A stretch of 32,000 nt of DNA from an uncultured Actinomycetes bacterium (GCA_963843975.1 CAWJMG010000003.1:2310001-2342000), one strand, 5' to 3'; positions 2,868-28,908 are shown, numbered from the stretch's first letter. A program made the numbers and translations. Notes: generated by a model from the letters alone, not told the origin.

Positions 2868-3734
2868 TCACCCGAAGCGGCCGTTGACGTAGTCGTAGGT
2901 GCGGCGGTCCTGCGGCTCGGAGAACACCGCGTCGGTCGGGCCGTGCTCCACGATGACGCCGGGCTTGCCCTGCTCGGCGAGGAAGAACGCGCACTGGTCG
3001 GAGACTCGCTGCGCCTGCTGCATGTTGTGGGTGACGATCACGATCGTCACCTCGTTGACGAGCTCGATGATCGTCTCCTCGATGCGACGCGTGGACGTCG
3101 GGTCGAGGGCCGAGCAGGGCTCGTCCATGAGGAGCACCCTGGGCTTGATCGCGAGCGAGCGCGCGATGCACAGGCGCTGCTGCTGACCGCCGGAGAGACC
3201 GCCGCCAGGGTTGCGCAGCCGGTCTCGCACCTCCTTCCAGAGGCCTGCCTTGGAGAGGCAGCTCTCGACGAGCTCGTCCTTGGTGTCCTTGCCCGCCTTG
3301 GTGCCGGTGAGCTGAAGGCCCGCGATCACGTTGTCGTAGATGGACATCGCCGGGAACGGGTTCGGCTTCTGGAAGACCATGCCGATGTGGCGGCGGGCGT
3401 CCGTGAGCCGCTTCTCCGGCGCGTAGATGTCGTCACCGTCGAGCAGCACCTGGCCCGACATCGTGGCGTTCGGGATGAGCTCGTGCATCCGGTTGAGGTT
3501 GCGCAGGAACGTCGACTTGCCGCAGCCTGACGGCCCGATGAGGGCCATGACCTCGCCGGCCTTCATGTGCAGCGAGACGCGGTCGAGCGCGTGGTGCGTG
3601 CCGAACCAGGCCGACACCTCGCGGGCGTCGAGCGTTCCGCCGTCGACCGTCGAGGGTGCCGAGGTCGGCGACGGCGCCGGCGCCGGCACCACGGTCGGCG
3701 TCTCGACAGCGGGAGACTGGGCCTCGATGGTCAT
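2868..3734 (-). CDS. pstB: Phosphate ABC transporter ATP-binding protein PstB
   Basis: Walker [10 protein letters not shown], signature [16 protein letters not shown], Walker [14 protein letters not shown]-loop VTHNMQQA. The characteristic PstB C-terminus is present ([11 protein letters not shown]), as is [13 protein letters not shown] at 3734 is preceded by AGGAAGAGA. Confidence 0.95.
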
Positions 3735-3788
3735 GGGGTCATCTCTTCCTGACGGGGGATCGCGGGGACGGTCACGGTCTCGGCCTGC

Positions 3789-4715
3789 TCACAGGAGGTT
3801 GGGCAGCAGCGCGGCGACCTGGTTGCTCACGGCCCACCCGGTCGCGAGCAGCAGCGGCACTCCGACGGTCCAGGCCTGCCAGCGCCCCCAGCGCTCGCGT
3901 GACCAGGTGAAGAAGAGGACGGCGAGCAGGAACGCCTGCGCCCAGAGCACGAGCCCGAACGCCTGCGAGCTGTCGCCCGCCATCGGCCGCTCCGCGTCGG
4001 GCAGCGAGAGCGTCGTGACCGCACGCGGGCCGGCCGGGAACGGCACCTTGTCGACCGTGGTGCCGTCGGCGCTCGATCTGACCAACGTGGCATCCACACG
4101 GACCGTCGTCTCGGCGAGGTACGGCATTCCCTCGGCACTGATGAGGGTGAGGCGTGCGCCACCGGCCGTGAGGGGCTTCGGCTGGGGGTCGCCGGCACGG
4201 CGCACCGCGTCGACCACGTACGTCGAGAAGCCCTGCCCGGTCGTGACGGTGATCTCGGTGCCGGGAGTCAGCTGCCCGATGCCGCCGAACGGTCCGCCGA
4301 ACGCGGACTGACGCCCCATGACGATCGAGACGCCCGCCTGGCCGGGGAGCACGGTGTCCCGGCGATGACCCGGGCCCGACATGGTCTGCGACGACGCCGT
4401 GCCCTCGACCACGACCAGCTCCTTGCCGAGCGAGGGAAGGGCCAGGATCGCAACCGGCGCACCGATCGCGACGGGCTGACCCTCGAACGTGAGGGCGCTG
4501 ACCGGCGCCGTCCCCTCGGCGAGGGACTTGCGCAGGTCGCTGTAGAGCACCTGCTGGTCGCGCGCGGCCTGGAAGGGGCTGCCGACCACGAGCAGGAACA
4601 CGAAGCCGAGGCAGAGCAGCGCCAGCCCGGTCGTCACCGAGATGACATAGGCCCACATCGGCGACGGCTTGCGGTGCCGCGACGGCTTGGGCTTCGGCTC
4701 GGCGTCGCGCACCAT
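3789..4715 (-). CDS. Sortase-fold (class E-like) membrane protein lacking the canonical catalytic His and Cys. It has an N-terminal TM helix and two C-terminal TM helices.
   Basis: Sortase-like blocks are present: LPSLGKELVVVEG, SGPGHRRDTVLPGQAG, IVMGRQSAFGGPFGGIGQLTPGTEITVTT and ARLTLISAEG...VRVDA. The usual GHR is GRQ (ggg cgt cag, about 4306-4314). The usual TL(V/T)TC is LISAEG (ctc atc agt gcc gag gga, about 4127-4144). An alternative GTG start at 4856 lies 2 nt after the upstream stop. This gene is the C-terminal part of the spurious 1300-aa ORF 3789..7691. Confidence 0.7.
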   Translation of the reverse strand: MVRDAEPKPKPSRHRKPSPMWAYVISVTTGLALLCLGFVFLLVVGSPFQAARDQQVLYSDLRKSLAEGTAPVSALTFEGQPVAIGAPVAILALPSLGKELVVVEGTASSQTMSGPGHRRDTVLPGQAGVSIVMGRQSAFGGPFGGIGQLTPGTEITVTTGQGFSTYVVDAVRRAGDPQPKPLTAGGARLTLISAEGMPYLAETTVRVDATLVRSSADGTTVDKVPFPAGPRAVTTLSLPDAERPMAGDSSQAFGLVLWAQAFLLAVLFFTWSRERWGRWQAWTVGVPLLLATGWAVSNQVAALLPNLL

Positions 4716-4858
4716 CAGCGTGGGGCGACGCAGCCGCGTCCCCTTCTGCTCCGCGACCCGGCGGGCGCGCCGCCCACCCTCGGTCGACGACGAGGCGACC
4801 TCCCCCGTGGCCACCGCCACGGGGGAGGCCTGCGCCTCCTGGAGATCTGCGCTCACGA

Positions 4859-6202
4859 CTACTTGACCGTGACCGCGGCGCTCGTCTTGACGGCGGTGGC
4901 GTAGCCGGTGCGCTTGACCTGGACGGTGAGCGTGAGCTTCTTGCCCTTGTCCTTCGCCGTGGCCTTGTAGGTGGTCGCCGTGGCGCCCTGCTTCACGACC
5001 GTCGTGCCGCGCTTCCAGACGTAGGTGTAGGTGTACGTCGCCGTCGGCGACCACACGCCCTTGAACGCCTTGAGCGTCTCGCCGACGTTCGCGGCCGAGC
5101 CGGAGAACGTGATCCTCGGCGCCTTGGCCGCGACCGCGGCAGAGCCGAGGGCGACCTTCGTTGCCGCCGTGGTGCTCGGGCTGCCGTCGCCGATCGGGTT
5201 GGAGCCGGTGACGCGGCACGAGAGCGTCTTGCCGGCGTCCGCAGCGGCGAGGACGACGTCGGAGTCGGTGGTGCTGGTCTGCGCGACGACGCCGTTCTTC
5301 AGGAACTCGTAGGTGTACTGCGTGGCCCCCGACCAGACACCCGGCAGGCAGACGACGCGGGCGCCGACCTTCACGGTGCCGCTGAGCGACGCGGGCGACA
5401 GCAGCGTGGGGGCTGCGAGGCTGACCGTCACGGAGGAGTCGGTGGAGGTCGAGGACGTGAACGGGTCGGTGGCACCCGGGGTGTAGACGGCGGTCAGCGT
5501 GTGCGAGCCGAGTCCGAGAAGGCCGTAGCTCGTCGCCGCCACGCCGCTCGCGTCGACGCTTGCCGTGGCGAGGACGGTGCCGCCCTCCTTGAACGCCACC
5601 GTGCCCGTCGGCTTGGCGCCGGACGGGTTGGTCGTGTTGGACACCGCCGCGCTGAGGGCCAGCTGCTGACCCCAGCCCGAGGTGGCGGCCACGGAGAGCG
5701 TCGTGCTGGTGCCGGCCTTCACGACCGGCACCTGCGGCGTGACGGTGGCACCGCTGTTGGACACCGTGAAGGTGCCGACGTAGTCGCCGAGGGTCGCGGA
5801 CTGCAGCAGCGCGCGGCAGACGAGCGTGACGGTGTAGGTGCCGTCGTCCAGCTGGGTCAGGCCGTTGTTCGTCGCGAACACGCGCAGGGTGTTCGAGACC
5901 GGGACGGTGAACGCGCTGGCGATGCCGGTGCCGATGGTGCTGCCCGCGGTGTTGCCGACGATGTTGCCGGCGTCGACCGGGACGTTGCCGCCGGAGACCT
6001 TGACCTGGAAGTTCGTCGCAGGGTTCGGGCAGCCCGCCGACGTGGTCACGCTGAACGCCGAGTCCTGGGTCGTCAGCGACGTGAAGGTCAGCGAACCGAT
6101 CTCCGCGGCCTGGGCTGCGGGGGCGACGGCCACGATCGTGAGGCCGAGCGCCGCGGCGGCGATCGCACCGACGGCTCGGGTCGAACGGGTCAGCAGGTTC
6201 AT
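4859..6202 (-). CDS. Secreted surface protein (447 aa). It has a signal peptide, the shared two-Cys N-terminal domain, one Ig-like (Big-type) domain and two Ig-like G-x-W...Y-x-(W/F) repeats. No anchor motif.
   Basis: Signal peptide MNLLTRSTRAVGAIAAAALGLTIVAVAPAAQA, with GAAGGA before the ATG at 6202. The N-domain is about 75% identical to that of the next gene. The Ig-like segment reads TGTVAFKEGGTVLATASVDASGVAATSY...HTLTAVYTPG. The protein ends ...AAVTVK with no LAxTG or TM. Confidence 0.8.
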   Translation of the reverse strand: MNLLTRSTRAVGAIAAAALGLTIVAVAPAAQAAEIGSLTFTSLTTQDSAFSVTTSAGCPNPATNFQVKVSGGNVPVDAGNIVGNTAGSTIGTGIASAFTVPVSNTLRVFATNNGLTQLDDGTYTVTLVCRALLQSATLGDYVGTFTVSNSGATVTPQVPVVKAGTSTTLSVAATSGWGQQLALSAAVSNTTNPSGAKPTGTVAFKEGGTVLATASVDASGVAATSYGLLGLGSHTLTAVYTPGATDPFTSSTSTDSSVTVSLAAPTLLSPASLSGTVKVGARVVCLPGVWSGATQYTYEFLKNGVVAQTSTTDSDVVLAAADAGKTLSCRVTGSNPIGDGSPSTTAATKVALGSAAVAAKAPRITFSGSAANVGETLKAFKGVWSPTATYTYTYVWKRGTTVVKQGATATTYKATAKDKGKKLTLTVQVKRTGYATAVKTSAAVTVK

Positions 6203-6259
6203 CGGGATCCTTCGGGACGTCGCGGGTTCGGCTGGCAGGACGTGGAACGTGGTGCGGGG

Positions 6260-7219
6260 CTAGCGGCGCTCGTGCCGACCGACGACCTGCGGCCGTCCGG
6301 CACCGAGCAGGGCGAGGCCGGCCACGAGGGCGAGGACGGCTGTGAGGCCGAGCACCGGTCCACCGGCACCCGTCTGGGCGAGTCCACCGGTCGATCCGCC
6401 GCCGGCGTTCTCCGACGCCGTGACGGTCGGGTCGGCGCTCGCGGTGTCGATCGGCGTGGCCGACTCGGTCGGTGTCTCGGACTCCGTCGGCGTGGCCGTG
6501 GCGGTCGCCGTGTCCGTGGGCGTCGCCGTCTGCGACGCGGTCGCCGTGGCCGTGGGCGTCACGGTCGGCGTGACTGTGGGCGTCACGGTCGGCGTCACCG
6601 TGGGGGTCACGGTCGGCGTGGCCGTGGGCGTCACGGTCGGCGTCACGGTTGGCGTCACCGTGGGCGTGACCGTCGGTGTCACGGTCGGCGTCACCGTGGG
6701 CGTGACGGTCGGTGTGACCGTCGGGGAGGCCGTGCTCGGGACGACCGGGGTCACCTTCGTGCCCGTGCCGCTGACCACGAACGTGCCCACGTAGTCGCCC
6801 TGCGACGCCGAGGCCAGGAGGCCGCGGCAGATCAGCGTCGTCGTGTAGGTGCCGTCGCTGAGCGCCGACAGGCCGTTGTTCGTCGCGAAGACCCGCAGCG
6901 TGTTCGACACCGGCACAGCGAAGGGCCCTGCGTTGATGCCCGTGCCGATCGTCGCGCCCGCGGTGTTGCCGACGATGTTCCCCGCCGTGGTCGGGATGTT
7001 GCCGCCGGTGACCTTGATCTGGAAGTTGGTCGCGCCGGCCGGGCAGCCCGCCGACGTCGTGACGCTGAACGGCGAGTCCTGCGTCGTCAGCGACGTGAAG
7101 GTCAGCGTTCCGATCTGGGCGGCTGACGCCGTGCCGGACAGGAGCGCGAGAGCACCCGAGGCCGCACCGAGCGCGATGAGGACCGACGCGGCAGAGCGTC
7201 GTACGAGCGACTGGGACAT
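6260..7219 (-). CDS. LAQTG cell-wall-anchored surface protein (319 aa) with the shared two-Cys N-terminal domain and a (TPTV)n stalk
   Basis: ATG at 7219 is preceded by GGAAGAGGAG, followed by a signal peptide. The C-terminal sorting signal is LAQTG, then the hydrophobic stretch AGGPVLGLTAVLALVAGLALLGAG, then the basic tail RPQVVGRHERR. The track ORF extends to 7270, which overlaps the upstream stop. Confidence 0.85.
   Translation of the reverse strand: MSQSLVRRSAASVLIALGAASGALALLSGTASAAQIGTLTFTSLTTQDSPFSVTTSAGCPAGATNFQIKVTGGNIPTTAGNIVGNTAGATIGTGINAGPFAVPVSNTLRVFATNNGLSALSDGTYTTTLICRGLLASASQGDYVGTFVVSGTGTKVTPVVPSTASPTVTPTVTPTVTPTVTPTVTPTVTPTVTPTVTPTATPTVTPTVTPTVTPTVTPTVTPTATATASQTATPTDTATATATPTESETPTESATPIDTASADPTVTASENAGGGSTGGLAQTGAGGPVLGLTAVLALVAGLALLGAGRPQVVGRHERR
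6548..6724 (-). repeat. 12-bp tandem repeat encoding (TPTV)n, about 14-15 units, within a longer T/P/A/E-rich stalk (6416-6724)
   Basis: The plus strand shows GTCACGGTCGGC/GTCACCGTGGGC-type 12-mers repeated head to tail. The translation is PTVTPTVTPTV...TPTATPTVTPTV. Confidence 0.9.
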
Positions 7220-7266
7220 GGTGCTCCTCTTCCGGACGACCGTCGTGCGACGGTCCGACGTACGGC

Positions 7267-8136
7267 TCACAGCGCATCGACCCGCTCGCGCTGGCCGACG
7301 GGCTCGTCGGCGCGACGCAGCGGACGACGGAGCGCCGTCGCGATGGCGAGGCCGACGAGCAGGACGACTCCGGCCCCCAGCAGCACGTTGCGCGCCGTGG
7401 TGTCGGCCACCGGGCGGCTGCCGGTGGAAGCTGCCGCGTCGGTCTGGTCGCCGGCCACCGGCGCCTGTGTCGAGCCGGGTGCGGCGCTCTCCCCCGGCGC
7501 CGCCGTCCCGGCGCCGCTCGGCTGCGCAGACGGGTCGCCCTGCTGGGCCGGCTCCCCCGTGGCGGCGGCGGTGGGGTCGAGGCTGCTGCCGGCCAGCGGG
7601 TCGGCGGGGTCGAGCGGCTTGAGCTCGGTGTTGAACGGCTTCGCGGTCTCGCCGAGGGCCGTGAAGGCGCCCTTGCCGTCGAGCAGCACACGACCGCTGA
7701 AGGCGCCGTACGTCAGCGACCCGCGCAGGAGGTCGCGGCAGGTGGCGGTGAGCGTGTACGTGCCGCCGGGCTTCACCTGGATCGCGTTGACGGCGAACCA
7801 GTCGCGAAAGGTGAACGACAACGGCACGAGGAGCTGACCGCTCACGGTCGGCTTGAGCGCCTTCAGCTGGGTGACACCGACGAGGTTGCCGACGGTGTTG
7901 TCGTCAGGGATGTTCGGTCCGGACAGCGTCACGACGACCGCTGTCGCCTTCGCCGGGCACGGCTCCTCGGTGAGGATGGAGGTGACGTCGGCGACCTTGG
8001 CCGACGCTGGGTCGAGGCGTACCCAGCCGAGGTCGGCCTCGGCGGCGGCCGCGGGACCCGCCGCCAACGAGAGCACCGACCCGGCGAGAAGGGTGGCGAG
8101 CGCCGCGCCGAGTGCGCGGACGACCAGGCGGGACAT
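7267..8136 (-). CDS. Membrane-anchored surface protein (289 aa). It has a divergent copy of the two-Cys N-terminal domain, a low-complexity P/A/G/S linker, and a C-terminal TM helix with an RRPLRR tail.
   Basis: ATG at 8136 is preceded by GAGGAAGGA. Signal peptide MSRLVVRALGAALATLLAGSVLSLAAGPAAAA. Cys pair in ...EEPCPAKAT... and ...LTATCRDLL.... The C-terminus reads NVLLGAGVVLLVGLAIATALRRPLRR with no LAxTG. Confidence 0.75.
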   Translation of the reverse strand: MSRLVVRALGAALATLLAGSVLSLAAGPAAAAEADLGWVRLDPASAKVADVTSILTEEPCPAKATAVVVTLSGPNIPDDNTVGNLVGVTQLKALKPTVSGQLLVPLSFTFRDWFAVNAIQVKPGGTYTLTATCRDLLRGSLTYGAFSGRVLLDGKGAFTALGETAKPFNTELKPLDPADPLAGSSLDPTAAATGEPAQQGDPSAQPSGAGTAAPGESAAPGSTQAPVAGDQTDAAASTGSRPVADTTARNVLLGAGVVLLVGLAIATALRRPLRRADEPVGQRERVDAL

Positions 8137-8159
8137 GGCGATCCTTCCTCGGGCCGATC

Positions 8160-8222
8160 GGTCCGCGAACGGACGGGAACGGTGCTGCGTCACGTGGTCA
8201 ATCCACGTGGGTGGAGGTGAAC
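8160..8222 (-). promoter_or_regulatory. Candidate regulatory cluster upstream of the 7267..8136 gene: GTTC-repeat units plus a perfect 7-5-7 palindrome
   Basis: Read on the minus strand, the order is GTTCACCTCCA (8222-8212), then CACGTGG-TCAAT-CCACGTG (8191-8209), then GTTCCCGTCC (8180-8171) and GTTCGCGGACC (8170-8160). All lie within a 160-bp intergenic gap. Confidence 0.35.
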
Positions 8223-8296
8223 GGACGGTTGCCTGAAGGCATCCGACGCGATGCGGTTCGCGGTACAGATCTGCGTCGTCCGTGCGGCCTTCTTCG

Positions 8297-8641
8297 TCAC
8301 GACAGGTCGGGGGGCGGCGCTGTGGTGACGACGGGTGCCGGCGGTGCCGGCTCCGACGCCGAGCTGGCGACGGCGAGGTAGACGCATGCTGCGACGGCCA
8401 TCAGCAGCAGGTACACCCACCAGGCGCGCCACGGGGAGGTACGGGCCCGGTGCTCGGCCTCACGCTGGGCCTCGATGCGGCGGCGCTCGACGCGCGAGGC
8501 CGCGCCCAGGGCCTCGGCCTCGCGCACGCGACGGAGCTCGGCGCGCGTCGGGCGAGGGGTCAGGTCGCCGGGACCGATGAGCGTCTGCTCCACGGCTGGT
8601 GCACTCTCCGTTCCCGGTTCGTTGTCCTTCATGGGCGGCAT
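8297..8641 (-). CDS. Small single-pass membrane protein (114 aa) with an Arg/Glu-rich N-terminal helix; unknown function
   Basis: ATG at 8641 lies 31 nt after the upstream stop. The sequence reads ...AELRRVREAEALGAASRVERRRIEAQREAEHRA..., then TM WWVYLLLMAVAACVYLAVA, then a Pro-rich tail. The rest of track ORF 8297..9010 overlaps the upstream gene and looks non-coding. Confidence 0.55.
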   Translation of the reverse strand: MPPMKDNEPGTESAPAVEQTLIGPGDLTPRPTRAELRRVREAEALGAASRVERRRIEAQREAEHRARTSPWRAWWVYLLLMAVAACVYLAVASSASEPAPPAPVVTTAPPPDLS

Positions 8642-8672
8642 GGTGTGGTCGTCGAGGTGGTCGGGGACACGG

Positions 8673-9575
8673 TCAGTGCCGGGGCACGTACGCGCGCGAC
8701 CCACCGGCCGCCGCCACGAGCAGCGCGCCGACGAGCAGCAGGAGCAGTCCGGAGCCGAGCGGGGCAAGGGGGTCGGCCCCGGTGTGCGCCAGGGTGCCCT
8801 GGGGTGTCGAGGCCGGCGACACGCGTGGCGTGGTGGTGCTCGTGCCGGGGACGACCGCTGGCGCCACCTGGGTCGCGGACGGCCCTCCCGGGGCGATGAC
8901 GTAGAAGACGGCCTGGCTGACGGCCGACCCCGCCGACGCGTCAATCGTGTAGACGCCCGGGGCGAACCCCGCGGGAAGCAGCAGCGTGAGAGACCCTGCG
9001 CCCGCTGCATCGACGCGGATGTCGGGCGTCAGCGTCTGCGTGCCGAGCCGCACGACGACCTCGGCGTACGCCGGGTAGCCCGCGACGTTCACGCGGTACG
9101 AACGGCCCGTCTGGACGGGTGCGCTGCCGGGTACGAAGGCCCCGGCGGCCGTGGTGACCCATACCGACGGCACACCGGTGACGACGAGGCCCACGGGCGA
9201 GCTCTGCGAGGACGTGAACGCCCCCGGGTCGTAGGGCACGAACGTCGCCACGACGTCGGGGGTGCCGACGGGGAGGTACAGGGCGCCGGTCGTCGCCGTC
9301 CCGTCGGCCACGTCCACCGACGCGAGGATCCGTCCGTCGCCGGTGAACCGGACGAAGCCCGTCGCACCACCGGGCGCGACCCGCGCGGAGAACGACAGCG
9401 GGGTCCTGACGGTCGCGGTCGTGGCCGGGAGCACCTGCAGAGCCGTGGTCGTGACCACCGGCTGGCCGTCCGCCGACGCGGCCGGGAGGCTGAGACCGGA
9501 CACCGACGCAGCGAGGAGCGCGACGGCGAGCACGGACACGACGCGCCGCAGCGCGGTCGACCCCGTGGCGGTCAC
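8673..9575 (-). CDS. LAHTG cell-wall-anchored Ig-like surface protein (300 aa)
   Basis: GTG at 9575 is preceded by GGGAGAG. Signal peptide ...ALRRVVSVLAVALLAASVSGLSLPAASA. Ig-like segment GFVRFTGDGRILASVDVADGTATTGALYLPVGTPDVVATFVPYD. Sorting signal LAHTG, then a hydrophobic stretch, then GGSRAYVPRH. Confidence 0.8.
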   Translation of the reverse strand: MTATGSTALRRVVSVLAVALLAASVSGLSLPAASADGQPVVTTTALQVLPATTATVRTPLSFSARVAPGGATGFVRFTGDGRILASVDVADGTATTGALYLPVGTPDVVATFVPYDPGAFTSSQSSPVGLVVTGVPSVWVTTAAGAFVPGSAPVQTGRSYRVNVAGYPAYAEVVVRLGTQTLTPDIRVDAAGAGSLTLLLPAGFAPGVYTIDASAGSAVSQAVFYVIAPGGPSATQVAPAVVPGTSTTTPRVSPASTPQGTLAHTGADPLAPLGSGLLLLLVGALLVAAAGGSRAYVPRH

Positions 9576-9717
9576 GTGCTCTCCCTGGTCAGGACGTCGG
9601 AACCTCGGTCGGTCATGCTGTCGATCCGCCACGCACTCCGGCCTGACACGGGATGACGCCTGCCCGAAGGCCCGGTGAACAGCGGGCGGCGTCCTCACTC
9701 CATCGGGTGACGCCGTC

Positions 9718-10860
9718 TCAGCGCCTGGCGCTCACGAGCGCTTCCTCCGCGGGCCCGGAGCCCCGCACCCGACGGCCGGCGGGCGGCTCGGTGAGCCGAC
9801 GGCGGCGGATGAGGAGCGCGAGCAGCAGGACCAGAAGGAGCAGGCAGCCCACGACGAGCCACGGGACCGCCCAGAACTGCGTCGTCGCGGTCACCGGCTC
9901 CGAGGGCGGGTTCGCGTCGCCCTCGGCCGCGAGCGGGAAGACCCGCACCGTCGCGGTCATGAGCAGCTGCGGCGTCACCTCGGGCACGGGGATGGTGAAC
10001 GTCGCCGTGCCTCCGGGGAGGAGCAGCGGGACGTCGGGGACCTCGGCCGCCTCCACGGCTCCCCCGAAGATGCCGGCGACTCCGACCGACTGGCGGCCGC
10101 CGAGCCGCACGTTCCCGGTGTTCCGCACCGTGTAGGTGACGACCGCGGTACCGCGCCCGAACGGGTTGAGCGTGCCGTTGTACCGGGCGGAGAGACCCTC
10201 GACCGAGAGCTCCGCCTTCAGCTCGCCGGCGACACGGACCGCCATCTTGAGGGCGACGCGCTGCTCGAGCTTGACGACCGATCCTCGGTCTCCCGGCGTC
10301 GCGCCCTTGGCCACGGTCGACACGACGATGCCCGCGAGGTGGTCGCCGACCGGGGCGCCCTTCGGGATGGTGACGCGGAACGGCACGAACAGCGTCTGCT
10401 TGGGCGCGAGCTTCACGAACGGCTTGCCGGAGGGTGTGGTGAAGACGACCCACTTCGCGGCGTCGGCGATCTTCGCGGCAGCCGGCTGCAGGCCGAGCTC
10501 GCCGTCGGGGCCGTTGACCGCGTCGACGGCGTACAGGTTCAGCGTGAGGGGGACGGTCGAGAGGTTGACGACCGCCACCTCGTCCTTGACCACTCCGCCA
10601 CGTGTGCTGAGGAGCGTGTAGCCCGTCCTCAGGTCGAGCTTGCCCTTGCTCGACGGGCCGAGCCCGTAGGTGACCGTGGTCGGTGGTGCTGAGGCCGTCG
10701 ACGAGGGCGACGGCGAGGGCGACGGGCTGGCGGCGAGCGCGGGGCCGGACGCGCCCACGAGCAGGGCCAGGGCGAGCGCGGAAGCGCTGAGCGGGGCGAG
10801 CAGGCGGCGGGCGATCACCCCCGTATCCGACCGGGTCCGTGCGACGTGCGGGCCAAGCAA
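9718..10860 (-). CDS. DUF916-like (CscA-like) cell-surface protein with a C-terminal TM anchor (380 aa)
   Basis: A signal peptide is followed by SPSPSPSPS. The pattern resembles DUF916: YGLGPSS..LDLRTGYTLLSTRGGVVKDEVAVVNLSTVPLTLNLYAVDAVNGPDGELGL and WVVFT...VKLAPKQTLFVPFRVTIPKGAPVGDHLAGIVV. C-terminal TM WLVVGCLLLLVLLLALLIRRRR. The assignment is by eye only. Confidence 0.65.
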   Translation of the reverse strand: MLGPHVARTRSDTGVIARRLLAPLSASALALALLVGASGPALAASPSPSPSPSSTASAPPTTVTYGLGPSSKGKLDLRTGYTLLSTRGGVVKDEVAVVNLSTVPLTLNLYAVDAVNGPDGELGLQPAAAKIADAAKWVVFTTPSGKPFVKLAPKQTLFVPFRVTIPKGAPVGDHLAGIVVSTVAKGATPGDRGSVVKLEQRVALKMAVRVAGELKAELSVEGLSARYNGTLNPFGRGTAVVTYTVRNTGNVRLGGRQSVGVAGIFGGAVEAAEVPDVPLLLPGGTATFTIPVPEVTPQLLMTATVRVFPLAAEGDANPPSEPVTATTQFWAVPWLVVGCLLLLVLLLALLIRRRRLTEPPAGRRVRGSGPAEEALVSARR

Positions 10861-10882
10861 GGGTGAACGCTGGACGACAAGA

Positions 10883-10912
10883 GCGGGGCGAGCCCCGAAG
10901 GACTCGCCCCGC
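10883..10912 (-). terminator. Hairpin after the WxL-type gene (possible terminator or attenuator inside the gene block)
   Basis: Perfect 10-bp stem GCGGGGCGAG (10883-10892) / CTCGCCCCGC (10903-10912) with a 10-nt loop. On the minus strand it is followed by TCTTGTCGTCC. Confidence 0.5.
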
Positions 10913-10939
10913 CCGTCGTTCAGCCCGGGGTGACCAGGG

Positions 10940-12694: not shown

Positions 12695-12700
12695 GAACGA

Positions 12701-13729: not shown

Positions 13730-13829
13730 GATCTGGTCCTCTCCCTGAGGTGATCGACCAGCCCTGTGCCGGTCGGTCGGGTGGTGCAGCGAGCCGTGGT
13801 GCGGTGGTGCGGTGGACCGATCGCCTCCG

Positions 13830-16321
13830 TCAGGTGCGACGGGATGCGATCCACGGCAGGACGGTCCTGGCGAGCAGGGCCGACAGGCCGAGTACGAGGG
13901 CGGCCAGCAGGGCGAGACGGCTCGCCGAGGCTGGGTCCGCGGGGGTCGGCGCCGACGCGGCCACCGGCTGGGTGGACGGTGTCGAGGTCGGCGCCGGTGC
14001 CGAGGTGGTCGGGTCAGGAGTCGGGCTCTCGCCGCCGGTCGCCGGCACTCCGGCGCCGTCGTCGGGGACGACGACCGGGGTCGGCTCCGGCGTCGGGGAC
14101 GACTCCGTCGGAGTCGGGGTCGGGGTGGGCGTCGGCGTCGGTGTCGGCGCCACGTAGCTCCGCAGCGCGGCCGCCGCTGCGACCGTCTTCGCCGTGAGCG
14201 CGTCGGTCAGCGGGAGGTACCCCTCGGGCAGCTGCCCGGGAGCGGTGCCCGGCGTCTGCCCGGCACCGGCGGCGTAGGTGAGGAGCTTGGCGTAGTCCTC
14301 GCGACGGTCGGCCGTGAGCTTGGCGGGGACGGTCGCCGCGTAGCTCACGATGGTCAGCGGGTACGCAGCCGCGTTCGTCGTCGTGAGGTTCGGGAGGAGC
14401 ACGCCCTGCTTGTCCGGCGGCATGGCCGAGACGGCTGCGGACATCGAGGCCTGGTCGGGCGCGACGAAGGCGCCCGAGGCGTTCTTCAGCGCCACCGCCA
14501 CCTGGCGGTACCGCGCGGCCGACGCGGTGTCGGTCAGCCCGAGCATCGACCGCTGTCCGAGGGTCTGGTTCGGGGAGAGGCCGTACGAGTTGACCACCGC
14601 GAGCTTGGGCACGTCGCGACGGTTCGTGTCGCCGCGGCTCACCTGGCGGGCCGTGGCGTTGAAACCCGCGGCGTACGGGTAGACGTCGAGCGTGCAGTTG
14701 GCGAGGTCGAAGCCCGGCGGCGCGTTCGGCGGCACCTGGCAGCCGAGGTCCGCCCGGGGGAACGAGCTCGTGGGCAGGGTGAGCCCGACGTACTTCTCGT
14801 TGAGCTTCATGCCCCACGGGTCAGCCTTGCCGGCGAGGAACGCTGCGGCCTCGGGGTCCGACACGATGTAGCGCCACAGGAGGTCGGCGGAGTCCGACAG
14901 GCCGGCGTTCACCAGGAGCCGGCCGAGGCCACCGCCGATGAGGACCGTGTAGCCCTGCGGCTTGAAGTCCGGGTTGATGGCGAGGAAGTCGGGATCGCGC
15001 GAGATGTCGTACGGGTTCGTGCCGACGTTGGTCGCGGTGCCGTTCGCGAGGTCGAACGGGTAGCTCTGGGTCATGAGCTTGGCGAGCAGGCGCGGGGTCA
15101 GGTTGACCTGTTCGATGCGCGACCCGACCTTGCCGCGGATGTCGGCGGGGACGGAGTCCGGGCCGATCGGCTTGCCGCTGGGGTCGCGGACCGGCATCTG
15201 ACGGTCGACGTTGGCGACGAAGGTCATGGCGCTCACCGCCACCGGGGCGTAGACCACGCCCTTGGTCGACGGGTCGCTGCTGGTGACGAAAGCGAGACCC
15301 GGGTCGTCCGAGGCGATCTGCTGCCGGGTGGTGTCGTCGGACAGGCTGGTGAAGCCGTAGTTGTTGGCGCCGAGCCCGCACAGCTCGGGCTGCCACGCCG
15401 TGATCGCCTCGGTGATGAAGTCGGTGCCGAAGGTCGGGGTTTCGGGGCGGCCGAAGCTGCAGGCCGCACCGATGGGCTGGAAGGCGAGCGGGATGGTGAT
15501 CGCCTGCGTGAAGTTCGTGGTCGACAGCGGCGACGTGGAGAGCCAGTCGTCCGACCGGGTGCCGACGACCGTGCCGTCGACCTCGGTGAGACTGCGAGGC
15601 ACGATCACGAGGAAGCAGTTCGGCGTCCGGCCGTTGATGCTCTGGCCGCAGCCGAGGCCCGGGGCCTCGAGGCCGGTCTGCATCTCGAAGAACGCCTGGC
15701 CGGTGCCGTCCTGCGCCGTTCGGCCGATCGGGATCTCGTTGGTCGTCGAGCCGTCGAAGAACTGGCTGCGACGCTCGGTCTCGACCGTGCCGTCGACGCC
15801 GTGGAACTCGACGTACTTCTGGGTGAAGTCGCCCGGAGCCTGGACGTAGACCGTCTCGTTCGGGTCCTTGACCGGCTGTGTCATCTGGCGGGACGCGATG
15901 TTGGCCGAGCCGTCCGGCACGTCGACGAAGCCGCCGTACTGGCACTGCTCGCGGGTGGGCTTCTGGCCCGGCTCGGCCCAGCACTGCATGAGCTGCATGT
16001 AGTTGCCCAGCACGGTGCCGCTGCCCGTGACGAGGGAGGGGGCGGCGTTCTTCCACGTGACCGTGACCGACTGGTTGACGAGGTCGGTCGTCTGGTCGAC
16101 GGTGAACTCGACCGACGAGAACTCACCCGTGCCGGTGACCGTCACGGGCTCGTGGCCGCCGCCGCGCGCGGTGAGATCGATGCCGCCGCGTCCTCCGCCG
16201 GGCCGCCCACGAGGACGGTCGGCACGACTGCGAACGCAGCCGCCACCGCGACGGCGACGCCGCGCGCAACACGCTCGCCGGTGATCCGGCGGCGCGGCCG
16301 GGTGGTGAGGACGTGGCTCAC
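13830..16321 (-). pseudogene. Large (~830 aa) secreted PstS-family-like protein with a P/T-rich stalk and C-terminal TM anchor. An apparent 1-nt frameshift lies between the signal peptide and the mature part (or is a sequencing error).
   Basis: GTG 16321 overlaps the upstream TGA (GTGA). It encodes the signal peptide VSHVLTTRPRRRITGERVARGVAVAVAAAFAVVPTVLVGGPAEDAAA, then hits TGA after 59 codons. The body (IDLTARGGGHEPVTVTGTGEF...) reads in the -1 frame. The span is 2492 nt (3n+2). The C-terminal half has PstS-like ends: YPLTIVSYAATVP...LLTYAAGAGQ...LPEGYLPLTDAL. Then come (PT)n and TM LALLAALVLGLSALLA with tail SRRT. The 997-aa track ORF is an artefactual upstream extension. Confidence 0.7.
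13920..14150 (-). repeat. Low-complexity P/T-rich stalk-coding region, including (PT)7
   Basis: The translation is APTPTPTPTPTPTPTESSPTPEPTP...SAPAPTSTPSTQP, immediately before the C-terminal TM helix. Confidence 0.8.
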
Positions 16322-18031
16322 GAGCTACCGCCCTTACGGGCGAGGCGGGACACGACCGGCGGGGCCATGACGGCCGCGAGCAGGACGATGCCCGCGAGCA
16401 GGATGAGCGAGCCGGAGGCGCCTGAGGCAGCACCCGTGGCGGTCGAGACGGGGACTGCCGCGACCGGCACGCCGCCGTCCGTCGTCGTGTCGCCGCCCGA
16501 GGAGCCGCCGTCGGCGGGCAGACCGGTGTCGGGGTCGACGACGTCGCCGCCGGAGGAGCCGGCGCCACCGCCCGACGTGCTGCCGTCGCCCCCGGAGGTG
16601 GACCCACCTCCCGTCGAGCCGCCACTGCTGCCGCCGGAGGTCGAACCGCCGCCGGAGGAGCCGCCGCTCCCGCCGGACGAGCCACCGCTCGAGCCACCTG
16701 AGGAGCCACCGCCCGAGCCGGACCCGCCGGACGAGCCGCCCGACTTCGCGGTGCCGCACTGGAGCGGGCCGTTCTTGTCGCAGGCGGCAGGGAACGGCGC
16801 GGACTTGGCCAGGGTGTTCTCACCGGTCGCCGAGAAGGTCGGGTTGTTGCACTTCTTGATGTCGACGTTCTCGACCGTCACGCCCGGGATGCGCTTGACC
16901 TGCTTGAGGCCGGCCTGCACGAGGTTGATCGGGAGCGGCGAGAAGCCGAGGCGCGGCGCCTGCTGCTGGCCCTCGCACAGGAAGTAGTACGCGAACGCGC
17001 CGAGCGACTTGCCCTTGGCGGCGTTGAAGGTCCCCTCGACCGCGGTGGGGATGACCATGTAGCTGTAGCTCGACAGCGGGTACGCGCGGGCGTCCCCGTT
17101 GTTGTAGACCCCCGAGAGGTCCTGCGTGAGGTAGGTCGGGTCGGTCTCCGCGACCTTGTCGTTGATCTTCGCCTTGAGCAGACCCACCGCGACGTTCTGG
17201 GGGGTGGGCTCGACGTAGTAGCCGGCCTTGTTGAGCAGCTTCACGACAGGGAAGCCCGCGTTGAGCGCGTAGGAGTACTCGACGTAGGTGATCGTGCCCT
17301 CGTTCTGCTGCTGCGAGACGTATCCCGAGACGCCCAGCGATCCGGCCTGGGCGGTGAAGCCCTTGCCGGAGACCACCGGGTAGATCGACGTGGTTCCGCA
17401 AGGGGTCGGGCGGTTGGCCTGCTTGCAGTAGCTGTCCCAGAGCCCCTGGTACTGCTGGGAGAGGTACGTCGTGAACTGGGCCGTGGTACCCGAGCCGTCG
17501 CCGCGGACCACCGGCACGATCTTGCGGCCCGGCAGCACGAGGCCCGGGTTGTCCTTCTTGATCTGCGGATCGGCCCAGCTGGTGATGACCCCGGTGAAGA
17601 TCTTCGCGATCGTCTCGCCCGACAGCCGCAGCTGAGTGACGCGCTTGCCGCCGATCTTGAGGTTGTACATGAACGACGTGCCACCGGCGACGATCGGCAT
17701 GTAGGCGTACTTGCGCGACGGCGGTGAGTCGACGACGCCGGCGTCCTTGAGTCCGTAGGGGATCTCGGACACGGCGAAGTCGACGGTGCCGTTGCGGAAC
17801 TGGTTGCGGCCGTCGGAGGAGCCGGTGCCGGCGTAGTTCACGCGCAGGCCGTACTGGTTGACGTTCTTGCGCCACTGCTCGATGGCGTTCTGGCTCCAGG
17901 TGGAGCCGGCGCCGGAGATCGGGACGTACGCTCTCGGCCTGCGCAGCCCCCAAGGACACGGACAGCCCGGCGAGCGTCGCGGCGACGACGACGGAGCCTG
18001 CGCGCAGCAGTCGCGTGGCGCGACGCGTCAT
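16318..18031 (-). pseudogene. pstS: Phosphate-binding protein PstS homologue with a C-terminal Gly/Ser stalk and TM anchor. An apparent 1-nt frameshift lies just after the signal peptide (or is a sequencing error).
   Basis: The body carries the PstS phosphate-clamp motifs ISGAGSTW, YAGTGSSDG, DFAVSEIP and VVRGDGSGTTAQFTTYL. ATG 18031 (RBS GAGGCGGAGG) encodes MTRRATRLLRAGSVVVAATLAGLSVSLGAAQAES in a different frame from the body. The frames meet near 17925-17940. The span is 1714 nt (3n+1). There is no lipobox Cys. The C-terminus has 92 aa of G/S-rich sequence, then LILLAGIVLLAAVMA and SRLARK. Confidence 0.75.
16471..16746 (-). repeat. Low-complexity Gly/Ser-rich stalk-coding region
   Basis: The translation is KSGGSSGGSGSGGGSSGGSSGGSSGGSGGSSGGGSTSGG.... 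The DNA consists of degenerate GGN/AGC-type repeats. Confidence 0.8.
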
Positions 18032-18105
18032 CGCTGGCCTCCGCCTCTCGTCCACCCTCATGGCCGACCCATCGGTCGTTCCCCCGCGCTGAGCGAAGCG
18101 GAGCG

Positions 18106-19407
18106 TCATGAAGTCGTGTCTCCTTCTGAGGGGCTAACAGGTGAACTCGTGGCAGGGAGCGGTACCCGAGCGGGTGAGGCCGGTGACTCGTCGTCGTCGA
18201 CCATGCGCTGGAAGTCACGGCGGGACTGCGCGGCAGCACGGCGGCGCTGGCGGTTGCTCAGCTGGCCGGGGCCGCGGCCCCCCACGATGCGGGCAAGGAT
18301 GAACAGGATCAGGACCAGCACGAGGAGCACGGTCGCGGCGCCGAAGCCGCGCTGCTTGAAGGTCTCCTCGGACGAGCCGATGAACTTGAACGCCGCCAGC
18401 GGGAGGCTGATCATCGGGCCGTCGAGCGGGTTGAAGTTCAGCGACTGCGTGAAGCCTGCGGTCAGCAGGACGGGCGAGGTCTCACCGACGCCGCGGGCGG
18501 TGCCCAGGATGATCGCGGTCATGAGACCGGAGCGCGCCGTCGGCAGCGTCACGTGCCACACCGTGCGGATCTGGCTGGCGCCGAGCGCGTACGACGCCTC
18601 CTTGAGGTTGCCCGGCACGAGCCGGAGCACGACGTCGGACGCGCGGATGATGATCGGCAGCATCATCACGCTGATCGCGAGAGCGGCGGCGAGCCCCGAC
18701 TTGGGCCTGTCGAAGATGATGATGAACGTGGCGTAGATGAACAGGCCCGCGATGATCGAGGGCAGCGCCGTCATCGCCTCGACGATGATGCGCACGAAGC
18801 GGGAGAACCGGTTCGGCAGCTCGTTCATGAAGACCGCGGTTGTCACGCCGAGTGGGATCACGATGACCAGCGCGATGGTGATCATGATCAGCGAGCCGAC
18901 CATCGCGTGCAGGATGCCGCCGGAGTCGAGCGGGTCGAGCGGCCCGGTGTTGCTCATGTCCTCGGTGTAGAAGTTCGTGTGCTTCAAGGCCTCGATGCCG
19001 TTGATGACGACGTAGCTCACGACCCACACCAGAGCGCCGACGAGGACCGTCGCCAGCGACGTGACCACTGCTGCCACGAGCCGGTCGACGACCGCCGTGC
19101 CGTCCTCGTCCTGCCACACGACGAGTGCGTACACCGCCAGGAAGATGCCGTACGCCACGAGGACGAAGCCGACGACGCTGTTGAACGGCGCGATGAAGTT
19201 GAAGATGATCGCGGTCAGCGAGACGGCCGCGATCGCCGCCCCGAGCAGCTGCAGCACGTCGGACAGACGCACCTTCGCGATCGGTCGCTTCGCGGCCGGC
19301 GGCTGGGAGAAGTCGTGGTTGACGACCGTCGTGCGCGCCCCGTCGGCCGGCGCGGAGCCCAGGGCTACCGCGAGGAGCTCGGCGCGGTCGATCTCGGTGG
19401 TGGACAT
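18106..19407 (-). CDS. pstA: Phosphate ABC transporter permease PstA
   Basis: Motifs include ...EAMTALPSIIAGLFIY..., PGNLKEASYALGASQIRTVWHVTLPTARSGLMTAIILGTARGVGETSPVLLTAGF and multiple TM helices. The start lies 1 nt after the pstC stop. Confidence 0.9.
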   Translation of the reverse strand: MSTTEIDRAELLAVALGSAPADGARTTVVNHDFSQPPAAKRPIAKVRLSDVLQLLGAAIAAVSLTAIIFNFIAPFNSVVGFVLVAYGIFLAVYALVVWQDEDGTAVVDRLVAAVVTSLATVLVGALVWVVSYVVINGIEALKHTNFYTEDMSNTGPLDPLDSGGILHAMVGSLIMITIALVIVIPLGVTTAVFMNELPNRFSRFVRIIVEAMTALPSIIAGLFIYATFIIIFDRPKSGLAAALAISVMMLPIIIRASDVVLRLVPGNLKEASYALGASQIRTVWHVTLPTARSGLMTAIILGTARGVGETSPVLLTAGFTQSLNFNPLDGPMISLPLAAFKFIGSSEETFKQRGFGAATVLLVLVLILFILARIVGGRGPGQLSNRQRRRAAAQSRRDFQRMVDDDESPASPARVPLPATSSPVSPSEGDTTS

Positions 19408-19408
19408 G

Positions 19409-20461
19409 TCAGGCCTCCGCGCCGGCGCCGGAGCGGCTGCGCGCGACGATCGCGCCGGCCGCGAAGTTGATGATCAGCGTGAGGACGAACAGCGCGAGGC
19501 CGGCGGCGAAGAGCGCGCTCGTGGCGAACGGTGTCGACTCGCCGTACCGCAGCGCGATGAGCGCCGACACCGTGTAGCCGCTGCCGCTGTTCTGCAGGAT
19601 GTGGAAGCCGAGGTCGAACGCCGGCGCCAGGATCAGATAGACCGCGATCGTCTCGCCCAGTGCACGGCCGAGGCCGAGCATCGTGCCGCCGATGATGCCG
19701 CCGCGTCCGTAGGGCAGGACGACCGAGCGGACCATGCCCCACTTCGTCGCGCCGAGGGCGTAGGCGCCCTCGCGCTCGCCGGGAGGGGCCTGGGTGAAGA
19801 CCTCGCGCATGACCGACGTGGCGATCGGCGTGACCATCAGTGCCACCACGATGCCCGCGATGAACGCGCTCGAGGTGAAGACGCTCGCGGGCGACAGCGG
19901 GTCTGCCGGATCGGCGCCGTCCACGCGGAAGATCGGGATGAACCCGAGGTACGTCGAGATCCAACGGGCGACCGGCGCGATCTCGTACTGCAGCAGCAGG
20001 AATCCCCAGATGCCGAACACGATGGACGGCACTGCGGCCATCAGGTCGACAATCGTGATCAGAGGGCGCTTGATCCGCAGCGGTGCGTACTCCGAGATGA
20101 ACAACGCCGTGCCGAAGGCGAGCGGGAACGAGAAGAAGACCGCGACGAGGGCGACCAGGATCGTTCCGGTCAGGACCGCTGCGATGCCGAACGTCCCGGA
20201 GTCCGGATCCCACTGGGCGGTGGTGAGGAACGACCAGCCGGCAGCCTGGATCGCCTGCAGCGCACGGAATCCCAGGAAGAGGCCGACGGCCAGCATGACG
20301 AGCAGGACGAACCAGCCGCTCGCCCGGAGGACTGAGCGGAACACGCGGTCGGCGACGGTCTGGCGACCGACCGGCGGTCCCTGCTTCGGCCGCGGCCGAG
20401 GCTCGCCGATCGCGATGCCCGAGTCGACCCCGGTGCCCTGGTCCTCGATGGTCGTGGTCAT
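19409..20461 (-). CDS. pstC: Phosphate ABC transporter permease PstC (350 aa from ATG 20461)
   Basis: Motifs include FISEYAP..IKRPL..IVDLMAAVPSIVFGIWG and GEREGAYALGATKWGMVRSVVLPYGRGGIIGGTMLGLGRALGETIAV. ATG 20461 overlaps the upstream TGA (ATGA). The 67 codons further upstream in the track ORF look non-coding. Confidence 0.9.
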   Translation of the reverse strand: MTTTIEDQGTGVDSGIAIGEPRPRPKQGPPVGRQTVADRVFRSVLRASGWFVLLVMLAVGLFLGFRALQAIQAAGWSFLTTAQWDPDSGTFGIAAVLTGTILVALVAVFFSFPLAFGTALFISEYAPLRIKRPLITIVDLMAAVPSIVFGIWGFLLLQYEIAPVARWISTYLGFIPIFRVDGADPADPLSPASVFTSSAFIAGIVVALMVTPIATSVMREVFTQAPPGEREGAYALGATKWGMVRSVVLPYGRGGIIGGTMLGLGRALGETIAVYLILAPAFDLGFHILQNSGSGYTVSALIALRYGESTPFATSALFAAGLALFVLTLIINFAAGAIVARSRSGAGAEA

Positions 20462-20883
20462 GAGGCGCTCTCCGCAGGAAGGACGTCGGCCGAGAGCCGC
20501 TGCCAGGGGAACTCGGTGGTGGTGCCCGTGTCGGCCGCCGGAGCGATCGGGGCGATCTCGCGGAACTGCTCGAGGTTGTAGCGGCACTCGCGCTCGTGCC
20601 TGAACCCGCGACCTGAGGTCGCGATGACGCGACTGTCGTCGGCAAGCAGGTGCCACGCCCACGAGCCCGTGGCCGGGTCGTGCAGGATGTGCGCCGCTCC
20701 GACGGCGGCGAGCTCGCGCACGTCCGCAACTGCGGACAGGGCAGCCTCCGCGTCCGGGTACGCGATCGCGGCTCGGCCGAGCTCACGGTTGTTGGCACCG
20801 AGGAGGCGCCAGCCGACTCCCCCGGCCGCGGGCTCGTGCACCAGGCGGCCGCCCGGGACGAGCTGGAACCGGGGAGTGGACAC
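20458..20883 (-). CDS. Tandem DUF1508 (YegP-like) protein, 141 aa, translationally coupled to pstC
   Basis: There are two YegP-like repeats: GWRLLGANNRELGRAAIAYPDAEAALSAVADVRELA and WAWHLLADDSRVIATSGRGFRHERECRYNLEQFREIA. There is no signal peptide. GTG 20883 is preceded by AGAGGGG. The stop overlaps the pstC ATG. Confidence 0.65.
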   Translation of the reverse strand: MSTPRFQLVPGGRLVHEPAAGGVGWRLLGANNRELGRAAIAYPDAEAALSAVADVRELAAVGAAHILHDPATGSWAWHLLADDSRVIATSGRGFRHERECRYNLEQFREIAPIAPAADTGTTTEFPWQRLSADVLPAESAS

Positions 20884-20962
20884 GGCGTGAGCCCCTCTGC
20901 GCGCGACGAGAAGCCGCAGGAGGTCCCTGCAGCAGCGGCAGCGTGTCGAGCCGGGCCTGACG

Positions 20963-20995
20963 GAGGCCGACGGGAAGGTGAACGACCGGAGTTGG
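20963..20995 (-). promoter_or_regulatory. PHO-box-like direct repeats (candidate PhoP-type response-regulator site) upstream of the DUF1508-pstCA genes
   Basis: The minus strand reads GTTCATGTTTC CAACTCCGGTC GTTCACCTTCC, i.e. three 11-nt units with the outer two starting GTTCA. The site lies 80-112 nt upstream of GTG 20883. Confidence 0.5.
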
Positions 20996-21060
20996 AAACA
21001 TGAACGGTCCCGTCGGGCCCGAGACCTCGGGCGACGGGCAGGCGGCTCGAGCGCCCGCTG

Positions 21061-26226: not shown

Positions 26227-26421
26227 CTCCCTCATACAAGGGAGTGTCAAGAATCAGCCGAAGTAGCTGTCAACCATCAGCCGAAGACATGTAAAGCCTC
26301 AGCCGAAACCCAACTGTCAGGCATCAACCGAGGGGCGTTCTCAACTGGTAGTTGCACGTGGTCTTGTGCAGCTTGGAGGTTGGGATGCCTGGAGCGAGGT
26401 TGACCGAGCACGACCGTGGGG

Positions 26422-28892: not shown

Positions 28893-28908
28893 ACGAGCTC
28901 GGAGCCGG
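28893..28908. repeat. Right copy of the 16-bp direct repeat; includes the last 6 nt of tRNA-Thr
   Basis: ACGAGCTCGGAGCCGG is identical to 24967-24982. Positions 28903-28908 are the tRNA 3' end. Confidence 0.9.

Follow-up and report, generated by a model that had tools for sequence, protein, structure and literature searches.

In a 32,000-nucleotide (nt) stretch of DNA from an uncultured Actinomycetes bacterium (GCA_963843975.1, CAWJMG010000003.1:2310001-2342000; the window hereafter), the pstC and pstA genes of a phosphate transporter are separated by 14.4 kb from pstB, the gene for the transport ATPase. This locus, at positions 2868-20995, raises the question of whether a canonical pstS-pstC-pstA-pstB operon has been split open, as a first-pass annotation of the sequence had proposed, or whether the genes between pstA and pstB belong with the transporter. 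Gene order across related genomes and the families of the encoded proteins argue for the latter. We consider it fairly probable that the whole region forms one conserved operon, coding for an accessory Pst system that is integrated into the envelope and has a wall-associated capture module, and is not a disrupted pstSCAB.

A conserved row of genes with pstB at its far end

The window DNA is ~71% G+C throughout, which fills raw lists of open reading frames with shadow frames; genes were resolved by third-position G+C, translations and family scans. The scans and translations reproduced the order that the annotation had read on the minus strand, namely PHO-box-like repeats, a YegP-like (DUF1508) gene, pstC, pstA, 11 genes for envelope proteins, and pstB. 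The row is uninterrupted, and there is indeed no opposite-strand gene within the block. Its features, in window positions and in transcription order, are as follows.

20973..21005, minus strand: PHO-box-like operator of three 11-nt direct-repeat units, read from the sequence; motif in 40 of 63 related loci
20458..20883, minus strand: DUF1508 (YegP-like) gene, first of the row; cytoplasmic protein with two repeats (Pfam PF07411, E 1.2e-8)
19409..20461, minus strand: pstC, permease (TIGR02138, 255.8 bits against a cut-off of 196.45)
18106..19407, minus strand: pstA, permease of 433 amino acids (aa) with N- and C-terminal extensions (TIGR00974, 224.7 against 193.45)
16318..18109, minus strand: pstS; signal peptide, phosphate-binding domain, Gly/Ser tether and C-terminal transmembrane (TM) segment (TIGR00975, 208.3 against 205)
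13830..16321, minus strand: 'big'; signal peptide, N-terminal beta domain, PstS-fold domain, Pro/Thr linker and C-terminal TM segment (AlphaFold AF2 model, Foldseek)
12701..13729, minus strand: PBP2, a secreted, divergent binding protein of the PstS family (282 homologues, many with PF12849)
10940..12694, minus strand: large WxL-type protein; N-domain, two Big_3_5 Ig-like domains and C-terminal WxL-like domain (Pfam, AF2)
9718..10860, minus strand: WxL-interacting-protein-like (DUF916) protein with C-terminal TM segment (Pfam, 20.7 bits against a cut-off of 27.3; orthologues above the cut-off)
8673..9698, minus strand: lineage-specific LAHTG sorting-signal protein (C-terminal LAHTG, hydrophobic stretch and basic tail)
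8297..8641, minus strand: lineage-specific small single-TM protein (translation; only in the closest relatives, L002 and L003)
7267..8193, minus strand: N-domain paralogue with C-terminal TM anchor (blastp to the N-domains of the LAQTG protein and surfA, 36% identity)
6260..7270, minus strand: N-domain paralogue with (TPTV)n linker and LAQTG wall-sorting signal (N-domain 76% identical to that of surfA)
4859..6202, minus strand: surfA; secreted N-domain paralogue with Big_3_5 domain and conserved C-terminal repeats (Pfam, blastp)
3789..4856, minus strand: pseudo-sortase; N-terminal TM segment, sortase-fold domain and two C-terminal TM helices (Pfam Sortase, 40.1 against 26.6)
2868..3734, minus strand: pstB, ATPase, last gene of the row (TIGR00972, 339 bits against a cut-off of 343.2)

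To determine whether this layout is peculiar to the window, relatives were fetched with the alignment of PBP2 homologues, one genome per species. The search found 314 relatives, and from these 80 loci were retained with 10-kb flanks (named L002 and so on); all window proteins were mapped onto them. The results showed that the order pstC-pstA-pstS-big-PBP2 is present in 65 of 66 loci, the lone exception being broken up by frameshifts, and that pstB directly follows the sortase-fold gene in 62 of 63. The DUF1508 gene lies upstream of pstC in 64 related loci. The pstA-pstB distance, 14.4 kb in the window, ranges from 8.0 to 14.4 kb in 60 related loci (median, 12.4 kb), and the two genes are apart in every related locus measured, so the block is not strain-specific. 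Carriers include Streptomyces, Kitasatospora, Streptacidiphilus, Actinacidiphila, Motilibacter, an Acidothermaceae isolate, Catenulispora and Actinocrinis, together with metagenome-assembled genomes (MAGs) of Frankiales, Streptosporangiaceae and 'Nanopelagicales'. Independent gene calls in Actinoplanes tereljensis and Amycolatopsis cynarae give the same 12-gene row with 4-nt overlaps. In total, more than 60 independent genomes, complete chromosomes among them, have the same order, which excludes a strain-specific insertion or a chimera. What had been taken for a canonical pstSCAB split open is thus a stable, distinct architecture, pstC-pstA-pstS-...-pstB. The accompanying view that the block is no recent mobile insertion was borne out: the row is conserved over several actinobacterial orders, its G+C content is uniform, and no plasmid relatives of the cluster were found. 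Streptomyces have a canonical pstSCAB in a conserved phosphate 'supercluster' (PMC7866108); in that genus, therefore, the operon is an additional system.

Several versions of the cluster differ from that of the window. The minimal versions L020 and L064 ('Nanopelagicales' and Actinomycetota MAGs) have only ~2.7 kb from PBP2 to pstB and no DUF916/WxL-interacting protein (WxLIP) gene, and they define a smaller core. In Streptomyces sp. NPDC057617 (L032, 18495-20986) and S. odonnellii (L051, 8748-11502), a second DUF1508-pstC-pstA set directly follows pstB, which suggests two cluster copies in tandem, the loci ending before more is visible. Two contigs with this high-G+C cluster, L014 and L048, are labelled as Bifidobacterium breve and Actinomyces sp. 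MAGs, probably through mis-binning or mislabelling.

We then examined whether the row could be transcribed as a unit. Every junction singled out in the first-pass annotation was verified: ATGA at 20461-20458 (DUF1508 stop/pstC start), a 1-nt gap at 19408 (pstC/pstA), GTGA at 16321-16318, where the GTG starts a good signal peptide of 'big', a 6-nt gap at 12695-12700, and a 2-nt gap at 4857-4858, where the next GTG, at 4856, begins an N-terminus conserved in L002. Further tight junctions are the ATGA that pstA and pstS share at 18109-18106 and, possibly, a GTGA at 7270-7267. A scan for terminator-like sites gave none above chance within the row. Co-expression of the block with the Pst genes is therefore plausible, with one strand, coupled junctions and no such terminator.

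Upstream of the first gene, the PHO-box-like repeats are present as annotated. The three units at 21005-20973 (GTTCATGTTTC, CAACTCCGGTC and GTTCACCTTCC) match the PhoP direct-repeat consensus, which was defined in Streptomyces as the 11-nt unit G(G/T)TCAYYYR(G/C)G, often with poorly conserved units between the core units (PMC2275107). Of 63 related loci, 40 have the motif GTTCAY-N16-[GC]TTC in the 260 nt that precede the first gene; the background over all locus DNA is 0.006 occurrences per 260 nt. From this recurrence we infer, on good grounds, phosphate-starvation control of the operon.

The transporter core and three PstS-fold proteins

PstC, PstA and PstS score above the NCBIfam equivalog cut-offs. 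PstB falls 4 bits short of the TIGR00972 cut-off (E 1.4e-101), yet this is its best match by far. By these family assignments, PstC and PstA, and probably PstB, are orthodox parts of a phosphate ATP-binding cassette (ABC) importer. A 96-nt 'tRNA-Val' called by ARAGORN inside pstA (19003-19098, minus strand) is not confirmed by Rfam and is almost certainly a false positive.

All 11 genes between pstA and pstB encode, as annotated, proteins with a signal peptide, a TM segment or an LAxTG signal, according to their translations. The first of them, however, is not merely one more surface-protein gene. By its TIGR00975 score it is a genuine pstS, and the transporter thus has its own binding protein directly after pstA. 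The order is pstC-pstA-pstS-[10 genes]-pstB and not the canonical pstS-pstC-pstA-pstB. Alignment to solved PstS structures (8ODS, 2Z22) showed that the equivalents of T10, S38, R135, S139, G140 and T141 are kept and that two ligands are changed, Phe11 to Trp and Asp56 to Glu. The numbering is that of E. coli PstS, whose listed positions we take to be the phosphate ligands. No lipobox was found in the cluster PstS. The window protein has a type I signal peptide, a Gly/Ser tether of ~130 aa carrying VDPDTG, and a C-terminal membrane helix, and 67 of 68 PstS orthologues have a Gly/Ser/Thr-rich linker of ~100-150 residues and a C-terminal TM segment after the binding domain. These results suggest that PstS in this system is held at the membrane by its C-terminal helix, at the end of a long disordered tether.

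Two further proteins have the PstS fold. The AF2 model of 'big' (pLDDT 85) was compared with the PDB by Foldseek, and the top 20 matches were all PstS/PhoX phosphate-binding proteins (TM-target 0.69-0.78); a PDB profile match gave E 5.9e-9. To the PstS-fold domain 'big' adds the N-terminal beta domain, the Pro/Thr linker and the C-terminal TM segment, the last present in 68 of 74 orthologues. Profile alignment with hhalign showed that the R...SGT anion motif is lost. PBP2 is secreted and contains six invariant Cys. In the alignment of the 282 homologues and in the profile alignment, its invariant motifs GSDTT, GSG.GR, RSSS and GSG.R align with the PstS ligand motifs. The protein is highly divergent from characterised PstS (best PDB profile E 0.0057). 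The operon also encodes three different low-complexity tethers, (TPTV)n in the LAQTG protein (6480-6700), (PT)n in 'big' and (GGS)n in PstS.

Two of these genes are frameshifted in the window, both just after the signal peptide. pstS has a 1-nt insertion (an extra G) at ~17929 (17917-17938), and 'big' has a single-base frameshift at ~16137-16160. Since L002, a relative with 90% identity, has intact copies of both, and the source is apparently a long metagenome-assembled contig, the frameshifts are probably (long-read) assembly errors, or otherwise early pseudogenisation. Programmed frameshifting was rejected, because the two single-base indels are unrelated to each other and L002 has neither.

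A pseudo-sortase and a variable wall module

The gene before pstB had been annotated as sortase-like. It does encode a sortase fold: the Pfam match is PF04203, and PDB sortases match with E 4e-10. The class E sortase model NF033747 gives 59.6 bits, below its cut-off of 160. Alignment to solved sortases placed an Arg at the catalytic His position and Ala or Gly at the Cys of TLxTC, and all 69 cluster copies carry the motifs LTL[IVM]T[AG]xG and [ML]GRQ, with Cys replaced by Ala/Gly and His by Arg. To determine whether the loss extends beyond the cluster, we searched 1.84 billion representatives for the pseudo-sortase family, which gave 250 clusters (50% identity) at E<=1e-30. In the best 150 of these 250 representatives, the Cys position is occupied by A, S, T, G, V, L or E, never Cys, and all sequences but one of the 151-sequence alignment have Arg/Lys in place of the catalytic His. 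The protein also has two extra, strongly conserved C-terminal TM helices and a conserved tail, RERWGRWQAW...LLPNLL. An active, dedicated anchoring sortase was therefore rejected, as the catalytic residues are lost across the family. The protein is catalytically dead and cannot be the enzyme that anchors the LAxTG proteins, which must rely on a housekeeping class E sortase encoded elsewhere.

The tether of PstS carries [VIL]DPxTG ~40 residues before the C-terminal TM segment in 56 of the 61 loci with both genes (window tail, 16318-16800; L002-L083). The motif resembles a sortase recognition pentapeptide, while the adjoining sortase homologue is dead. We asked whether loss of DPxTG goes with loss of the sortase-type Arg in the pseudo-sortase. 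No clean correlation was found across these loci, the motif occurring with R, Q and H. This covariation test neither supports nor excludes a pseudo-sortase that grips the DPxTG of PstS.

An N-terminal domain of ~130 residues with two conserved Cys (the N-domain) recurs in four window proteins, at pairwise identities from 76% down to 27% by blastp. Related loci have 1-4 copies. A profile of the domain gave no match against Pfam or PDB sequences. The paralogues are anchored differently, by a WxL-like C-terminal domain, by an LAxTG signal, by a TM helix or not at all. The AF2 model of the large WxL-type protein (pLDDT 87) retrieved only generic Ig-like strings by Foldseek, which is uninformative on the N-domain. 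The window WxL-type protein has no Pfam WxL match, and its orthologues reach 21-26.9 bits against the cut-off of 25. For DUF916 (WxLIP_PGBD), on which the window protein falls below the cut-off, orthologues score 33.5-37.3 bits and have the C-terminal TM segment; DUF3324 was not detected in the window protein or its orthologues. surfA is the last gene called before the pseudo-sortase in both Streptomyces L016 and Acidothermaceae L059, and its C-terminus is conserved in both. The LAHTG protein is 43% identical in L002.

Weighing the readings and known systems

The accessory, envelope-integrated Pst system that we favour could work as follows. Under phosphate starvation, PhoP would activate the promoter and the row would be transcribed together. 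PstCAB would import the inorganic phosphate handed over by PstS, which could sample the wall zone on its long tether. A wall-associated assembly, made up of PBP2, 'big' and the wall-bound N-domain, WxL and WxLIP proteins, may concentrate phosphate or relay it towards the membrane, and the pseudo-sortase would serve as a non-catalytic adaptor, possibly docking the DPxTG of the PstS tether or the C-terminus of surfA. A bolder proposal, which we hold to be rather unlikely, is a wall-spanning phosphate-capture apparatus of a previously undescribed kind: PstS would be 'fishing' in and beyond the peptidoglycan, the secreted PstS-like protein and the wall-fixed scaffolds with the new domain would hold or pass on the anion, and the dead sortases, a large family repurposed as a membrane receptor, would grip the [VIL]DPxTG of the PstS tether uncut. 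If true, it would be without precedent as a nutrient-anion relay across a Gram-positive wall, and a pseudo-sortase would have a function for the first time.

Several observations weigh against the favoured reading. LAxTG/LPxTG substrates occur in only 23 of 68 loci, and L020 and L064, the smallest versions, have no WxLIP gene; the wall module thus varies. PstS has Glu at the position of E. coli Asp56, and 'big' may not bind phosphate at all, as the canonical anion-binding motif is absent. In the 260 nt scanned, the strict operator motif is absent from 23 of 63 loci; the middle repeat unit of the window is poor, and PhoP binding is read from a consensus defined in Streptomyces. There are ~100-nt gaps before PBP2 and before the TM-anchored paralogue, where internal promoters are possible. 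Finally, if the frameshifts in pstS and 'big' are real, this copy is decaying.

The main rival, possible if unlikely in our judgement, is that the genes are co-regulated and functionally separate, a second Pst importer being expressed with a starvation surface programme (adhesion to phosphate-bearing particles or minerals, wall remodelling, cell-cell contact) that neither binds nor relays phosphate. WxL/WxLIP clusters of Firmicutes have been interpreted as adhesion or surface complexes (PMC10599100, PMC9772566), and the string-of-beads Ig-like architecture is adhesin-like. Identity to L002 is 43-81% for the surface genes and 89-95% for the pst genes, so that the former change far more quickly; they also vary in number between loci, and the loss of the anion-binding motif from 'big' also fits a programme of this kind. 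Set against these points are the three PstS-fold proteins within the surface block, with the anion-binding motifs of PBP2 kept, and the lack of recognisable adhesin ligand-binding domains in the Pfam scan of the window proteins and in the N-domain profile search. In addition, all but one of the loci compared retain pstB at the end of the row, after the pseudo-sortase, so the transporter would be expressed only by reading through, or alongside, the surface genes.

A minor rival, which we regard as improbable, is that free orthophosphate is not the substrate of the transporter and its additional binding proteins, which would instead handle, for example, a phosphorylated polymer fragment, polyphosphate, phosphite, arsenate or another oxyanion, with PBP2 and 'big' as the specificity determinants. 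The great divergence of PBP2 from characterised PstS, the remodelled site and extra N-terminal domain of 'big', the Asp56-to-Glu change in PstS, and a PstB just under its equivalog cut-off would all suit such a substrate. Nevertheless, PstS, PstC and PstA pass the cut-offs for phosphate-system equivalogs, seven of the eight phosphate ligands of PstS count as conserved, Asp56 being the exception, the upstream operator is PHO-box-like, and no hydrolase is encoded in the conserved core.

The surroundings of the operon bear on the weakest alternative. Three transposase genes and a tRNA gene lie upstream of it.

25048-26250, minus strand: IS481-like transposase
26498-27790, plus strand: IS256 transposase
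27866-28876, plus strand: rve/IS30-like transposase
28901-28975, minus strand: tRNA-Thr, beside the transposases

The first-pass annotation had stated that no mobile-element ends bound the block. This holds in that the transposases do not flank it, yet the three genes (25048-28876) begin ~4 kb upstream of the operon. Interruption of a canonical pstSCAB by a strain-specific insertion, or an assembly chimera, could appeal to these transposases and the tRNA, 4-8 kb upstream, and to a source that is apparently metagenome-assembled with indel errors, but it is already refuted by synteny, the order being shared by all those independent genomes, complete chromosomes included, with uniform composition, no plasmid relatives, transposases that do not flank the block, and a downstream neighbour shared with the close relatives L003 and L005.

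That neighbour, at 328-2775 on the plus strand and convergent with pstB, encodes a polytopic membrane protein of 815 aa for which Pfam and NCBIfam gave no match. On the upstream side, at 21061-23285 (minus strand), the gene of an aminoglycoside-phosphotransferase-like kinase and that of an MFS transporter share 82 nt, and a divergently oriented gene at 23462-24958 (plus strand) encodes a 498-aa secreted Pro/Thr-rich protein with no family match.

Phosphate is often limiting for soil and freshwater actinomycetes, in which its scarcity switches on antibiotic production, and how a scarce anion passes a thick polyanionic wall has hardly been addressed so far. The operon is a genetically tractable candidate, an importer packaged with its own envelope hardware, and occurs in at least ~300 species representatives, cultivable Streptomyces, Actinoplanes and Amycolatopsis included. 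Three of its components are unstudied, namely PstS with its C-terminal tether, an extracellular domain family that is new, and the dead sortases, a widespread family (~250 clusters at 50% identity). It also carries a warning for annotation, as calls of 'pstCA without adjacent pstB' and of 'sortase' are misleading in these genomes. As the first-pass annotation had supposed, no description of the arrangement was found in the WxL, sortase, DUF1508 and phosphate literature. The operon is apparently undescribed, as are several of its components. We found no description of such pseudo-sortases in the literature, and the paper on the Actinoplanes missouriensis sortase does not cover this protein.

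The closest known sortases are those of classes E and F from actinobacteria (SrtE1, PDB 5CUW; PMC5148588, PMC13251363). The pseudo-sortase resembles them in the sortase fold and the N-terminal membrane anchor, its best PDB sequence matches are actinobacterial sortases, and the class E signal LAxTG is the signal on its neighbour proteins. It differs in the Cys of TLxTC (Ala/Gly/Ser), in the His (Arg/Lys), in the often lost catalytic Arg and in the two extra C-terminal TM helices.

The wall module is most like the WxL clusters (Csc loci) of Lactobacillales and Enterococcus (PMC1534035, PMC9772566, PMC10599100), where a large WxL protein with N-terminal Ig-like domains, a DUF916-type WxLIP with a C-terminal TM segment and often an LPxTG-type protein are encoded side by side. 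More than 91% of known WxL proteins are in Firmicutes (WxL literature), where they assemble with the WxL-interacting protein into a surface complex bound to peptidoglycan (PMC10599100). In contrast, the present locus is actinobacterial, has one WxL-type protein, as do the related loci, and no detected DUF3324, and is embedded in a phosphate transporter operon. Since the published definition needs two WxL proteins, it resembles a WxL cluster without being a member. A WxL-interacting protein is defined by DUF916 (PGBD), DUF3324 (HBD) and a TM segment.

In the Isd-type heme acquisition loci of Firmicutes, receptors anchored to the wall are encoded together with their own sortase and an ABC importer. 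The outline is alike, with surface or wall-anchored proteins co-encoded with a sortase-family gene and a binding-protein-dependent ABC importer for a nutrient in short supply. Here, however, there are no NEAT domains, the ligand would be an anion and not heme, the sortase homologue is dead, and the relay is hypothetical.

Among phosphate loci, the pst region of Mycobacterium tuberculosis has three PstS paralogues, and its pstB lies apart from some pstCA pairs. To our knowledge, these PstS proteins are lipoproteins, and we know of neither a tethered PstS nor genes for WxL, WxLIP, Ig-like or sortase-fold proteins at that locus. It is like the present operon in being an actinobacterial phosphate locus with several PstS-type proteins and a non-canonical order; the cluster itself was not seen in mycobacteria among the related loci retrieved. 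M. tuberculosis PstS1-3 are cited in PMC7866108.

Canonical PstSCAB, as in E. coli and, under PhoP, in Streptomyces (PMC7866108), shares with the present system orthologous PstC, PstA and PstS, probably also PstB, the phosphate ligands and a PHO-box-type operator. In Gram-positive bacteria PstS is normally a lipoprotein (PMC7866108), whereas the cluster PstS sits on a C-terminal TM segment behind a long tether. The gene order also differs, a DUF1508 gene leads the operon, and two PstS-fold proteins and the wall module are added. By the sequences of its four core proteins, of which PstB scores just under its cut-off, the system belongs to the Pst family, from which it departs in gene order and in the lipoprotein anchoring of its binding protein.

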